From the sequence record MH355584.1: a stretch of 64,000 nucleotides of DNA; one strand, given 5' to 3'. Made by a program: the position numbers and the translations under genes. Below are positions 1,340 through 7,413 of the stretch, in pieces (the first letter of the stretch is position 1; the number at the start of each line of letters is the position of its first letter). The notes below the pieces were generated by a model. The model was not told the origin of the DNA. It was given only the letters and a program-made list of their open reading frames with translations, and searched no databases. Source of the stretch: Escherichia phage vB_EcoM_JB75.

Positions 1340-1813
1340 ATGAAATCATATGCTCAATTTTTAAATGAAGCGGTGTTAAATGAAGCATCTAGCACCGAAA
1401 TTCAAGCTGTCGCAAAAGCAGCCATTGCAGCGGGTAAATATTCCTATAAAGATGCTTCTGACGAATCACGATTCCAATTTGCTCGCGACATGAAAGCAGA
1501 AGGATTTACGGGAAATGCAGTTAGTATGGCCTGGAAAAGTCTAGTTGCTACTGGCGCTGCTTTTGCAAAGGCTTCGGGTAAACCTGCTCCTAAAGCAGAT
1601 CCTAAAGCGGCACAAGAAAAAAATATCGTTAAAGGAATTATCGCTAAATATGAAGCTATCCTTAAAGAGCTTTTAGTAATCAAAACCGAAGGCCAAAAGT
1701 TAGCCCGTGCTTATAGTTTCAAAGATAATCCACATGTTCACTCTCTTGAGTATGTTGAAGACATCCAAAAAATTATTAAAGACCGCATTTGGTCTGCTAA
1801 ACAAATCAAATGA
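1340..1813 (+). CDS. Internal protein (Ip-type), N-terminal capsid-targeting sequence
   Basis: 157 aa; N-terminus MKSYAQFLNEA resembles the T4 IPI/II/III targeting sequence MKTYQEFIAE cut by the prohead protease; RBS AGGAAA. Confidence 0.7.
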   Translation: MKSYAQFLNEAVLNEASSTEIQAVAKAAIAAGKYSYKDASDESRFQFARDMKAEGFTGNAVSMAWKSLVATGAAFAKASGKPAPKADPKAAQEKNIVKGIIAKYEAILKELLVIKTEGQKLARAYSFKDNPHVHSLEYVEDIQKIIKDRIWSAKQIK

Positions 1814-1817
1814 CATT

Positions 1818-1851
1818 CTTAGCCCCGACCGAAAGGTTGGGGCTTTTTAGT
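1818..1851 (+). repeat. 34-bp direct repeat copy 2 (contains terminator hairpin)
   Basis: Perfect copy of 1263-1296. Confidence 0.9.
1821..1850 (+). terminator. Rho-independent terminator
   Basis: Same hairpin plus T-run as at 1266-1295. Confidence 0.7.
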
Positions 1852-1938
1852 TTGAATCACATAGAGAATGCTGCTACGGATAGTAACAAAGTAATAAATA
1901 ATTAATAACCAACCGATAAATTATTTCAAGGATTTTAA

Positions 1939-2502
1939 ATGAAAACCTATGCCGAATTTTTAACCGAAGCAGCAAAATTACCATCTGAAGCAGATCTTAC
2001 TAAAGTATTCTTCCAATTGGACCCAAAAGACCGCGGCGATTTTCTTAAGTGGAAAGCTAAAGCTATTGAAATGTACAACATCGATAATAGTTCTTTTACA
2101 ATGAGTCAAGAAAATAAATTCAATAAAGCATTTTTCAAAATTTCTAAGAAATTGGCATCTGGCGCTCAGGTTCCTAAATCTGTGTTAGCTACTCCTGAAC
2201 GCGCACCTGTTAAAATTTCTAAGAATATGTTCGACACTAAAAAATACGTTAATGCTTTGAATAAAGCTCTTGATGCATTGGATGATGCAAAGAAGGCAGC
2301 CCGCGATCTTCAAGACGTGTACACCGATTTTGACCGCAAAACTAAAGGTTCTATTTCAAATAGCGAACGCAATAGTGTAAGTGTTTATTCTGATAGCCTT
2401 GATGTTCTTGGCGATGCGTATACTGAAATTAAAAATCGTATTAACACTGCATCTAAGCTAAAAGCTGCTGCAGAAGCTATAATAACTAAACTAGGTAAAT
2501 AA
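1939..2502 (+). CDS. Internal protein (Ip-type), N-terminal capsid-targeting sequence
   Basis: 187 aa; N-terminus MKTYAEFLTEAA; lysine-rich. Confidence 0.7.
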   Translation: MKTYAEFLTEAAKLPSEADLTKVFFQLDPKDRGDFLKWKAKAIEMYNIDNSSFTMSQENKFNKAFFKISKKLASGAQVPKSVLATPERAPVKISKNMFDTKKYVNALNKALDALDDAKKAARDLQDVYTDFDRKTKGSISNSERNSVSVYSDSLDVLGDAYTEIKNRINTASKLKAAAEAIITKLGK

Positions 2503-2510
2503 TTTTAAAT

Positions 2511-2535
2511 CCCTATCTAAATGATAGGGCTTTTT
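2511..2535 (+). terminator. Rho-independent terminator
   Basis: Stem CCCTATC / GATAGGG followed by T-run. Confidence 0.6.
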
Positions 2536-2627
2536 GGTATCTAGGCCTTTCTGGACCTCTCTAGGCATCATTTAGTTTATACCCTTTATAATATATTATC
2601 CTATCCTTTAATTGCCCATCCCTGCCC

Positions 2628-2734
2628 TAGAATTCCCTAAAAATTTTTTCACAAAACTGTTTACATCTCTGTTCTTCCATGGTACTATACAACTATCAAC
2701 TACTGATACAGAAAACAACTTGGAGAATGAAATG
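2628..2734 (+). repeat. Promoter/5'UTR cassette copy A (near-identical to 45532-45631)
   Basis: About 100 nt shared, including early promoter, leader and RBS GGAGAATGAAATG. Confidence 0.85.
2659..2688 (+). promoter_or_regulatory. T4-type early promoter (sigma70-like)
   Basis: -35 GTTTAC, 18-bp spacer, -10 TACTAT, upstream A/T tract. Confidence 0.7.
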
Positions 2735-2995
2735 GATAATTACGGCGAACTGTTCAACTTCTTTATGAAATGCGTTTCAGAAGATTTCGGTCGTACAGTG
2801 AATGATATTAAAGTTATCGGTCCTGAACATCCGATGTTTGAAACTTACGCAGTAATGGGTAATGAAGACGGTCAGTGGTATACTGTAAAGGTTGTGATTA
2901 ACATGTTCACTGCTGAAAGTTATGTTAAACTGTCTTCTAAAGTTTACCATGATAACGACGAAATCGCTGAAGAATATTTCAATAATATGAAATAA
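2732..2995 (+). CDS. Hypothetical protein (87 aa)
   Basis: ORF-track frame 2612..2995 trimmed to the ATG after RBS GGAGA; the upstream part of the track ORF is the promoter. Confidence 0.55.
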   Translation: MDNYGELFNFFMKCVSEDFGRTVNDIKVIGPEHPMFETYAVMGNEDGQWYTVKVVINMFTAESYVKLSSKVYHDNDEIAEEYFNNMK

Positions 2996-3051
2996 GTTTA
3001 CATAGGTTCATGATTGAGATATTATGAGCCTATACAAATGAGGAAAACATT

Positions 3052-5398: not shown

Positions 5399-5513
5399 TT
5401 TTAAAAACTCGCTGGTATGATTTAGATGATGGGGATGATGGCATTTCAGTTGATAGAGTTGACTGGAATGGTTGTTCCGAAGATATGAAAATTTGTTGAT
5501 TAGGGAGTTTAGA

Positions 5514-5882
5514 ATGGGATATCAAGCAGCTAAGCCATTTACTGTAACAGATGATAAGTTCGTATGTATTCAAAACGGTCGCGCTAAGTTAACGAATGCT
5601 GATTGGTTCACAGATAAGAAGGTTCTTCTGTGGTATATCATTAGTCTTCCTATATCATCGTTCGTATTTTACTTTTTTATAAAAAATCCAATGGACAGAA
5701 TAGGAGATTGGGTTCTTTTAACTATACTTGTTAATATTTTTACAGCAGCAGTATTATCAGGAATATGGCGTATGTTCATTGAAATGCCATGGCGTTTACG
5801 CAGACAACAAAAGATTTTTGATGAAAAGAAATATACTCAAAATTTAAATAACTTTATCACTGAATGCAGGAAATTAAAATGA
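5514..5882 (+). CDS. Small membrane protein, tandem paralog 3
   Basis: Start at ATG after RBS GGGAG; hydrophobic helices; C-terminal [10 protein letters not shown]. Confidence 0.55.
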   Translation: MGYQAAKPFTVTDDKFVCIQNGRAKLTNADWFTDKKVLLWYIISLPISSFVFYFFIKNPMDRIGDWVLLTILVNIFTAAVLSGIWRMFIEMPWRLRRQQKIFDEKKYTQNLNNFITECRKLK

Positions 5883-6319
5883 AAACACTATCAGCTGGTA
5901 TTATCTTTATGACAGAAGATAAAGATTTATTTATGGGTCGGGTTACTGGTTCTCGTAAGCCTGGAATGATGGCACATCGCTGGGATATTCCAAAGGGCCG
6001 TGTAGAAAGTTCTGATTTGAATGCACTGGAAGCTGCAAAAAGAGAATGCTTAGAAGAGACCGGTTTTAGCAATTATAATACAGACCTTCTAGAAGACCTA
6101 GGTGTATTTAAATATTCTAGTAATAAAGACTTACAGTTATTTTATTATACGATTCCAGTAGAGCATGAGATGTTCAGAAATTGCCATTGCGAGTCTTATT
6201 TTGAAAATAAAGATGGCGTCATGATTCCAGAGATGGATGCTTTTGCTCTTATTCCTCGTACTCAGTGGCAATATGTGATGGGTCCTTCACTTTACCGAAT
6301 AATGAACAACCTCTTTTAA
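5879..6319 (+). CDS. nudE: Nudix hydrolase
   Basis: Nudix box GX5EX7REUXEEXGU present ([15 protein letters not shown]); sits immediately upstream of e as T4 nudE (e.1) does. Confidence 0.85.
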
Positions 6320-6322
6320 TTT

Positions 6323-6330
6323 TATAAATA
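6323..6330 (+). promoter_or_regulatory. T4-type late promoter TATAAATA (lysozyme)
   Basis: Exact TATAAATA 27 nt upstream of the e start codon. Confidence 0.6.
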
Positions 6331-6356
6331 CCTTCTATAAACACTTAGGAGGTATT

Positions 6357-6851
6357 ATGAATATATTTGAAATGTTACGTATAGATGAAGGTCTTAGACT
6401 TAAAATCTATAAAGATACAGAAGGCTATTACACTATTGGCATTGGTCATTTGCTTACTAAAAGTCCATCATTAAGTGTTGCTAAATCTGAATTAGATAAA
6501 GCTATTGGGCGTAATTGCAATGGTGTAATTACAAAAGATGAGGCTGAAAAACTCTTTAATCAGGATGTTGATGCTGCTGTTCGTGGAATTTTGAGAAATG
6601 CTAAATTAAAACCAGTTTATGATTCTCTTGATGCTGTTCGTCGCTGTGCATTGATTAATATGGTTTTCCAAATGGGAGAAACCGGTGTGGCAGGATTTAC
6701 TAATTCTTTACGTATGCTTCAACAAAAACGCTGGGATGAAGCAGCAGTTAACTTAGCTAAAAGTAGATGGTATAATCAAACACCTAATCGCGCAAAACGA
6801 GTCATCGCTACGTTTAGAACTGGAACGTGGGACGCATATAAAAATCTATAA
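6357..6851 (+). CDS. e: Lysozyme (endolysin, T4 gene e type)
   Basis: 164 aa, near-identical to recalled T4 lysozyme ([33 protein letters not shown]...WDAYKNL) with a few substitutions. Confidence 0.97.
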
Positions 6852-6855
6852 AGTT

Positions 6856-6885
6856 GTTTACTTTCTCCTAGAATTGTGATAGTAT
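6856..6885 (+). promoter_or_regulatory. T4-type early promoter
   Basis: -35 GTTTAC, 18-bp spacer, -10 TAGTAT. Confidence 0.65.
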
Positions 6886-6939
6886 ATTCACAGTTGCTTG
6901 AAGAGACAAATTACTAATTAAAATATTTAAAGGAAACAT

Positions 6940-7413
6940 ATGAAAACATATCAAGAATTTATCACTGAAGCAGCTATTAATTCTCAAATTATTGCTGAAT
7001 CTTTTACTGATCTTTTGAAATTTAAAAAAGGTCAAAAAATTACTGCTGTATTGGATGATGGTACAGAAGTTGAGATGGATGTACAGGGATATAATTATGC
7101 AGTAGATGGAAAACTGTATAATAAATCTCATGCTAAATTTGATTCATTTGACGACTTTGTTAATACAGTTGAAGATGAAAAAACTCGTCGATCCATTGCA
7201 ACTGGTGATGCTAAGGTTCTTATGGCACATGGTCATGAACGCATTCGCGCTAAACAGAATAAAATGGGTGAAGATAATTTTGCATTAGTTGGTTATCAAT
7301 CTGGTAAACAAACTTATGGCTATCAACGTACTGCTACAATGTATAATAAAAATGGTAAAATTGCCTTTGTAAATAGTAAAGGTTCTATTCAGTACGTTAA
7401 ATCGTTCAAATAA
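6940..7413 (+). CDS. Internal protein (Ip-type), N-terminal capsid-targeting sequence
   Basis: 157 aa; N-terminus MKTYQEFITEAA; sits where T4 has ipIII, downstream of e. Confidence 0.7.
   Translation: MKTYQEFITEAAINSQIIAESFTDLLKFKKGQKITAVLDDGTEVEMDVQGYNYAVDGKLYNKSHAKFDSFDDFVNTVEDEKTRRSIATGDAKVLMAHGHERIRAKQNKMGEDNFALVGYQSGKQTYGYQRTATMYNKNGKIAFVNSKGSIQYVKSFK

Follow-up and report, generated by a model that had tools for sequence, protein, structure and literature searches.

The internal proteins (Ips) of bacteriophage T4 are small basic proteins with an N-terminal tag of 10 residues and a cleavage site, L/I-x-E, for the prohead protease gp21. Among them, IPI* inhibits the GmrSD enzyme of strain CT596. 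In amber-suppressor work on IPIII, capsid targeting depended on residues 4 and 7, whereas processing depended on residues 8 and 10, and foreign proteins were packaged with the ten tag residues alone (PMC9026906). T4 Ip1, Ip2, and Ip3 each inhibit a distinct GmrSD type IV (modification-dependent) restriction enzyme; Ip2 and Ip3 act on two further GmrSD types and do not cross-protect, and no sequence relationship links the three inhibitors (PMC12373910). IPIII was needed on strain ECOR17, and tag-less IPIII worked when it was expressed in the cell (PMC9391042). The present analysis concerns a stretch of 64,000 nucleotides (nt) from Escherichia phage vB_EcoM_JB75 (sequence record MH355584.1), referred to below as the window. 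An initial annotation had singled out three open reading frames (ORFs) on its + strand, and all three were present with the N-termini that it quoted: ORF1340 (1340–1813, 157 residues), ORF1939 (1939–2502, 187 residues), and ORF6940 (6940–7413, 157 residues). They are probably Ip genes of a T-even-type phage, whose products would be injected and would most likely serve against host defence.

The three ORFs resembled the T4 Ip genes in the tag, in the gp21 site, in the small basic mature proteins, and in being non-essential, polymorphic, cassette-like genes, and ORF6940 stood in the slot of ipIII. They differed from them in their mature parts, which were without detectable similarity to the T4 proteins, and ORF1340 and ORF1939 stood at a locus where T4 carries no ip gene. 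The comparison of the mature parts proposed in the initial annotation was run against the T4 Ips by BLASTP, and the similarity was limited to the tag for all three ORFs.

The N-termini of ORF1340, ORF1939, and ORF6940 were MKSYAQFLNEA, MKTYAEFLTEA, and MKTYQEFITEA, respectively. Residues Tyr4, Phe7, Leu8 or Ile8, and Glu10, followed by Ala, were found in three of three ORFs. The candidate gp21 motif was located at residues 8–10 in each, as LNE/A, LTE/A, and ITE/A (the slash marks the candidate cut), an agreement at motif level only. T4 IPII and IPIII start with MKTYQEFIAE/A, and IPI starts with MKTFKEF and is cut after ITE19 (ITE/A). The strict motif MK[ST][YF]x[EQ]F[LIV]xE occurred four times in the six-frame translation of the window versus 0 in 200 shuffles, and the match besides the three ORFs was gp61.1 at 52506. 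ORF1340 contained a second LNE/A at residues 13–15. The predicted mature parts had masses of 16.0, 19.7, and 16.5 kDa and isoelectric points (pI) of 9.50, 9.54, and 9.14 for ORF1340, ORF1939, and ORF6940, respectively, with net charges of +4 to +9 (+7 for ORF1340 and +9 for ORF1939). IPI*, IPII*, and IPIII* of T4 are likewise basic, with pI values of 9.02–9.65. The targeting residues, the processing residues, and the small basic mature parts of all three ORFs thus agreed with their initial reading as T4-type internal proteins. Judged by these sequence features, the three proteins are very probably packaged and processed as members of the Ip class.

The tag was kept in relatives of ORF1340 and ORF1939 down to ~30–40% identity, in the form M-x-x-[FY]-x-x-F-[LV]-x-E or with a nearby I-T-E. 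These relatives came from Mosigvirus, Jiaodavirus, a Yersinia phage, and metagenomes, and their tags were MLKFNEFLAEG, MINFSDFLNEG, MKSFSSFLNEG, MITFNEFLNES, MLEYSEFLKEL, and MKFKEFLAEA. Because the relatives keep the tag while their bodies diverge, this pattern indicates that the tag of the ORF1340/ORF1939 family is itself under selection. It also bears on a different explanation, in which the N-terminal likeness is only a side effect of recombination across a common 5' linker sequence and ORF1340, ORF1939, or both are not packaged. The 5' ends of the two genes were indeed similar in DNA (42 nt, 76%), ORF1939 was without a consensus late promoter, and the tag-like start of gp61.1 implies that the motif can occur outside accepted Ip genes. 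However, the functional residues were kept at the protein level though the DNA and bodies of the relatives had strongly diverged. The composition of the proteins also fits known Ips, and ORF1340 was preceded by a perfect late box and no early promoter. An origin as such a side effect is very improbable.

ORF6940 is already known, and by its sequence it is the protein named Ip4. With its tag MKTYQEFITE/A, it matched Pfam DUF7412 over its full length (E = 5.7e-96, 319 bits versus a curated cut-off of 27) and belonged to PHROG 3155, 'internal virion protein' (E = 6e-102). The protein was 100% identical to the internal virion protein of T2, RB18, RB33, and teqskov, and 98.7% identical to the ime09 protein, which is named Ip4; the likeness to Ip4 extended over the full length and to the position after e, and no difference was found. 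A tblastn search detected Ip4 in 470 phage records; among these were T4-like phages of Klebsiella and Salmonella, with ~70% identity. The initial reading is thus qualified for ORF6940, which is already annotated in databases. The mature parts of ORF1340 and ORF1939 matched no named Ip family. A sequence search of solved structures with Ip4 gave nothing meaningful.

The upstream context of ORF6940 was that of T4 ipIII, and Ip4 has thus taken the place of ipIII/ipII in the Ip locus near e. The local layout of T2 was the same, consisting of e, Ip4, and vs genes without denV. By tblastn, denV, segB, and the bodies of T4 ipI, ipII, and ipIII were not detectable anywhere in the 64-kb window. The vs.8 homologue lay directly 3' of Ip4, as in T2 (window 7414–7520). 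In Shigella phage KRT47, an ORF of 105 residues with the tag MKTYKEFIAES, gp123 (positions 9007–9324 of locus L001), was located between e and Ip4. It is labelled 'IpIII' though it is unrelated to T4 IPIII, and it belongs to PHROG 3966, 'unknown function'. The same record names its Ip4-type protein 'IpII', so the naming of Ips in databases is inconsistent.

ORF1340 (tag MKSYAQFLNE/A) and ORF1939 (tag MKTYAEFLTE/A) were unrelated to Ip4 beyond the tag and matched neither DUF7412 nor PHROG 3155. Both matched the full profile of PHROG 2280, listed with 'unknown function', with E values of 1.7e-60 and 2e-53, respectively. Homologues were found by tblastn in 511 phage records for ORF1340 and in 164 for ORF1939, and all among the matches listed were labelled 'hypothetical protein'. 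The members of PHROG 2280, a family without a functional label, include RB32ORF133c, RB69ORF149c, Shfl2p135, KP1_122, and fHeYen901_153, and literature searches for RB69ORF149c and RB32ORF133c gave no match. Direct homology between ORF1340 and ORF1939 was weak (BLASTP E = 0.02; hhalign probability of 13%, over 19 C-terminal columns only) and was not relied upon. Their kinship is proposed because of their joint membership in PHROG 2280, intermediates such as P0033, and a shared predicted architecture. The intermediates were recovered by exhaustive profile searching. P0026 and P0032 contained an ORF1340-like N-domain together with a C-terminal IxDRIWS motif, and P0033 was ORF1939-like. In P0010, P0011, and P0028, the N-domain of ORF1340 was joined to another C-terminal half. 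Klebsiella and Yersinia phage relatives showed 53–56% identity in the N-domain and a different C-terminal half. The relatives tested for family membership were all in PHROG 2280. On these sequence relations, ORF1340 and ORF1939 are likely to be two diverged members of one uncharacterised family.

The AlphaFold models of both proteins had the same layout, in which a disordered tag led into a small domain of three helices and a Pro/Lys linker, also disordered, joined this domain to a long helical hairpin. The confidence was moderate for ORF1340, with a predicted local distance difference test (pLDDT) value of 73. The ORF1340 model gave nothing in the PDB (Foldseek best E of 1.4) and only its own family in BFVD. 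The gene next to P0033 (positions 2092–2526 of locus L006, a Logan contig of SRR28624380) encoded a protein of 144 residues with matches to ART-PolyVal and DUF3990, the ADP-ribosyltransferase domain of polyvalent phage proteins, and a T4 gene 30.3-like ORF was also located near P0033.

The two PHROG 2280 genes were inserted at the terminator of rnaC. The homologues of rnaD and rnaC (species 2 and 1 stable RNA) occupied 951–1290 on the + strand and were near-identical to T4 rnaD-rnaC up to GGGGCTTTTT. They were identified through alignment to T4, since Rfam holds no rnaC or rnaD family and returned tRNAs only. The rnaC terminator hairpin, a terminator-like site at 1266–1289 (+), formed the left border of the cassette insertion. 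A second copy of this hairpin at 1821–1844 (+) closed the cassette of ORF1340, so that the gene was flanked by a 40-nt direct repeat, in which 1818–1857 was 95% identical to 1263–1302 and comprised the rnaC terminator hairpin and its T-tail. Homologous recombination at this repeat is a likely route by which the cassette could be excised or inserted. The 3' end of ORF1939 was closed by a related terminator hairpin at 2511–2529 (+) ending in GGGCTTTTT, and each cassette gene closed with a GGGCTTTTT terminator. From the junction of GGGCTTTTT with GGTATCTAGGCC onward, the sequence rejoined the post-rnaC sequence of T4. In T4, the rnaC terminator runs from GGGGCTTTTT directly into GGTATCTAAGCC, whereas the window parts the two by 1.24 kb (~1291–2534) that hold two genes. 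T4 has no gene between rnaC and e.8, and T2 is also without the ORF1340 and ORF1939 genes.

In Mosigvirus PhAPEC2, the slot between rnaC and e.8 contained this pair of genes as well, and in Jiaodavirus KP1 it contained a single member of the family. According to an annotation note in PhAPEC2, RB69 has an ORF1939-type gene, RB69ORF149c, in the same slot. The slot after the tRNA/rnaC block was thus used by PHROG 2280 in three genera. Compared with PhAPEC2 at the DNA level, ORF1939 was 95.6% identical (positions 4089–4652 of locus L010), ORF1340 was 75.8% identical, and the downstream e.x genes were ~69% identical. Because these identities are uneven, the cassettes have separate histories and move and diverge independently; the sequences point to a recent exchange of the single ORF1939 cassette between genera, presumably by recombination at the terminator repeats. 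Of the polymorphic IP loci, 57B-trna.4 and e-denV, ORF6940 was in the one near e, and ORF1340 and ORF1939 were in neither. The position in an IP locus is a habit of the class and no mechanistic requirement. The rnaC terminator probably represents a third Ip site besides the two of T4.

Repoila et al. reportedly described, in 1994, conserved flanks of IP genes that were similar to the cassette flanks found here. The cassettes also resembled the promoter/stem-loop elements (PeSLs) that mediate cassette shuffling in RB49 and phi1 (PMC2839356), in that the genes of the window were bracketed by a repeated terminator hairpin and a promoter-like box, and in that the presence or absence of genes between phages mapped exactly to the terminator repeats. 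They differed from PeSLs in the promoter, because PeSLs carry strong early sigma-70 promoters (PMC2839356) and the box here was of the late type, TATAAATA or AATAAATA.

The perfect late-promoter box TATAAATA was located at 1296–1303 (+), directly after the terminator and 44 nt before the ATG of ORF1340. A late-type box with one mismatch in the first base, AATAAATA, was located at 1893–1900 (+), 46 nt before the ATG of ORF1939. The equivalent site of ORF1939 was GATAAATA in Kelasse, and AATAAATA preceded the ORF1340 homologue in PhAPEC2. The listed sigma-70-like sites included none on the + strand from 900 to 2600, and hence none before either cassette gene. ORF6940 had no late box of its own and, like T4 ipIII, lay downstream of the late box of e, TATAAATA at 6323–6330 (+). 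The + strand showed no terminator-like site from e to ORF6940, and a late transcript of e and Ip4 likely originates at the e box. Late expression of both ORF1939 and ORF6940 is presumed. Shine-Dalgarno sequences (AGGAAA, AAGGA, and AAGGAA for ORF1340, ORF1939, and ORF6940, respectively) were found 6–8 nt 5' of each ATG.

In the proposed mechanism, the three Ip proteins would be made late in infection, and their first ten residues, the capsid targeting sequence, would bind the scaffolding core and build the protein into the prohead. The protease gp21 would then cut after Glu10 of the L/I-x-Glu motif, and the basic mature protein of 16–20 kDa would stay among the packed DNA and be injected with it. 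By analogy with T4 Ip1–3, the protein would most likely inhibit a first-line defence inside the host cell in a strain-specific manner. We infer the packaging, cleavage, injection, and target of these proteins from such comparisons. Packaging in the head and delivery with the DNA are also features of T4 Alt and the P1 Dar proteins. Alt is processed by gp21 (PMC9026906), and the Dar proteins protect against restriction (PMC12810830). Neither is related to the three proteins in sequence or fold; Alt, an enzyme, is cleaved at its two ends, and the Dar proteins, which are large, follow another route of incorporation.

The anti-defence idea is better founded, by analogy, than the initial annotation knew, because T4 Ip1–3 each inhibit a GmrSD enzyme. 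GmrSD inhibition has been demonstrated for these three only. The mature parts of ORF1340, ORF1939, and Ip4 had no sequence similarity to IPI*, Ip2, or Ip3 by BLASTP. This missing likeness is no argument against the function, because the three known inhibitors are themselves unrelated to each other. That the three proteins of the window are anti-defence inhibitors is plausible on this analogy, at slightly less than an even chance.

Several observations weigh against the assignment of the three ORFs to injected anti-defence Ips. In the study of Silas et al., ip4–10 were assayed against 15 GmrSD groups and gave no reproducible inhibition (PMC12373910); the N-terminal sequences of PHROG 2280 were absent from the supplements of that study, and there was no sign that its members had been included. 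No virion proteomic or functional data on the three proteins were found in the searchable literature. ORF1340 and ORF1939 had no Pfam or NCBIfam model, and PHROGs was uninformative on their function. Their mature parts resembled no named Ip family and, beyond their own family, neither a solved structure nor a predicted viral one, and the confidence of the ORF1939 model was low (pLDDT of 57), too poor for a fold search. Gene 21, which encodes the protease, lies outside the 64-kb window. The depletion of internal L/I-x-E (gp21) motifs in six proteins was not significant, with 3 observed versus 5.6 expected (P = 0.16). ORF1939 was preceded only by the one-mismatch late box, and a terminator separated it from the ORF1340 promoter. 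In the window, TATAAATA was not enriched, with 5 found versus 11.7 expected, and the T4 ip genes had no perfect box within 120 nt, which makes the box a weak criterion either way. The late box was therefore dropped as a criterion of the class and kept as support for ORF1340 only.

The negative GmrSD assays of ip4–10 would also suit proteins that are packaged and processed and have their main role inside the head, neutralising or organising the DNA or aiding core or head assembly, and inhibit no defence. The proteins are rich in Lys and basic, and they contain a Pro/Lys linker and predicted long helical hairpins. Head assembly is slowed in IPIII mutants of T4, and their burst is 40% (PMC9026906), and lysines of internal proteins contact DNA (PMC3012670). 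However, the genes are dispensable at the lineage level, as T4 and T2 are without the ORF1340 and ORF1939 cassettes, and cassette shuffling with uneven divergence suits accessory genes of an arms race better than structural ones. All three T4 Ips, moreover, proved to be restriction inhibitors. A main role inside the head is unlikely.

A second possibility keeps the three proteins as injected effectors and places their target outside GmrSD-type restriction, for example in some other immediate defence or in host take-over, with different roles for the conserved N-domain of PHROG 2280 and its exchangeable C-terminal hairpin. The three characterised Ips argue against such a shift of target, since they share no sequence and yet all hit GmrSD enzymes, and no catalytic motif or informative fold was found. 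On the other hand, the proteins of the window have no similarity to IPI*, Ip2, or Ip3, and the Klebsiella and Yersinia relatives share the N-domain and differ in the C-terminal half. One distant homologue adjoins the ART-PolyVal/DUF3990 gene, and T4 also injects Alt, an ADP-ribosyltransferase (PMC9026906). A target outside the GmrSD enzymes is rather unlikely. A broader proposal, that PHROG 2280 comprises unrecognised, widespread, injected two-domain effectors of Tevenvirinae that stem from a third Ip cassette site at the rnaC terminator and are directed at a non-GmrSD defence and that, separately, gp61.1 is an overlooked packaged peptide, is offered tentatively, as a minority possibility. On the predicted models, the conserved small helical N-domain of such effectors would be followed by the Pro/Lys linker and an exchangeable helical-hairpin C-domain, which would set the target specificity.

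The gp61.1 ORF (52506–52670, + strand) encoded 54 residues just upstream of the primase gene 61 and belonged to PHROG 1823, of unknown function. It starts with MKTYKEFIKE/D, in which Tyr4, Phe7, Ile8, and Glu10 are complete, and the T4 copy starts with MKTFKEFIKED. The remainder is a short acidic/Lys-rich low-complexity tail, and the pI without the tag is 5.0. Literature searches brought up no mention of the gp61.1 tag. The gene lies in what we take, by analogy with T4, to be an early/middle cluster of replication genes, and packaging of gp61.1 is doubtful.

The phage of the window is a Tequatrovirus. The first 8.2 kb shared 94–97% identity with many phages, among them Shigella phage KRT47 and Tequatrovirus LF73P1. 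The gene order on the + strand was tRNAs, rnaD/rnaC, ORF1340, ORF1939, e.8 to e.2, nudE (5864), e (6357), ORF6940, and the vs.8 homologue. The map of ORFs and tRNAs confirmed the placement given in the initial annotation, with two genes between the tRNAs and nudE and one after e. Its description of T4 was also correct, with ipIII and ipII after e, ipI beyond the tRNAs, and MKTYQEFIAE as the tag. The description of this order as a non-T4 arrangement was right in that it differs from T4, and it was qualified by how common the layout is, since at least 80% of the 8.2-kb region was held in one place by 208 phage records, and by the e-Ip4 order without denV, which is the arrangement of T2.

Ten tRNA genes were located at 118–949 (+), for Gln, Leu, Gly, Pro, Ser, Thr, 'Met' (CAT anticodon), Tyr, Asn, and Arg, versus eight in T4. 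The Tyr and Asn tRNAs were the extras, and the tRNA with the CAT anticodon stood where T4 has tRNA-Ile. The homing endonuclease gene segB was not found between the tRNAs of the window, nor elsewhere in the 64 kb. Two neighbouring genes aligned to their T4 proteins in two frames each, the vs.8 homologue (7455–8106) over 7455–7550 and 7519–8103, and the e.2 homologue over 5395–5490 and 5496–5684. A frameshift or a pseudogene could underlie these alignments, as could a different start or an error in sequencing.

The class, the tag, the polymorphism, and the anti-restriction role of internal proteins were known beforehand, and a name already exists for one of the three genes. Within the searchable sources, the new elements are the complete tag and Ip-like properties of PHROG 2280 and its use, in several genera, of the rnaC terminator as a third cassette site. 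ORF1340 and ORF1939 are useful testable candidates that hold no surprise for a T4 specialist, and the concept of internal proteins is unchanged. Injected internal proteins act before phage gene expression and so set the host range in the face of first-line defences. Specific inhibition of type IV restriction enzymes was shown for all three T4 Ips in 2025, and most other Ips are without a known target. Hundreds of sequenced T4-like phages, including many candidates for therapy, carry the PHROG 2280 family with its full packaging tag, and its members are labelled merely 'hypothetical'. Together, the tag-bearing family and the third site provide concrete candidates for new anti-defence proteins and a basis for better annotation of phage genomes.

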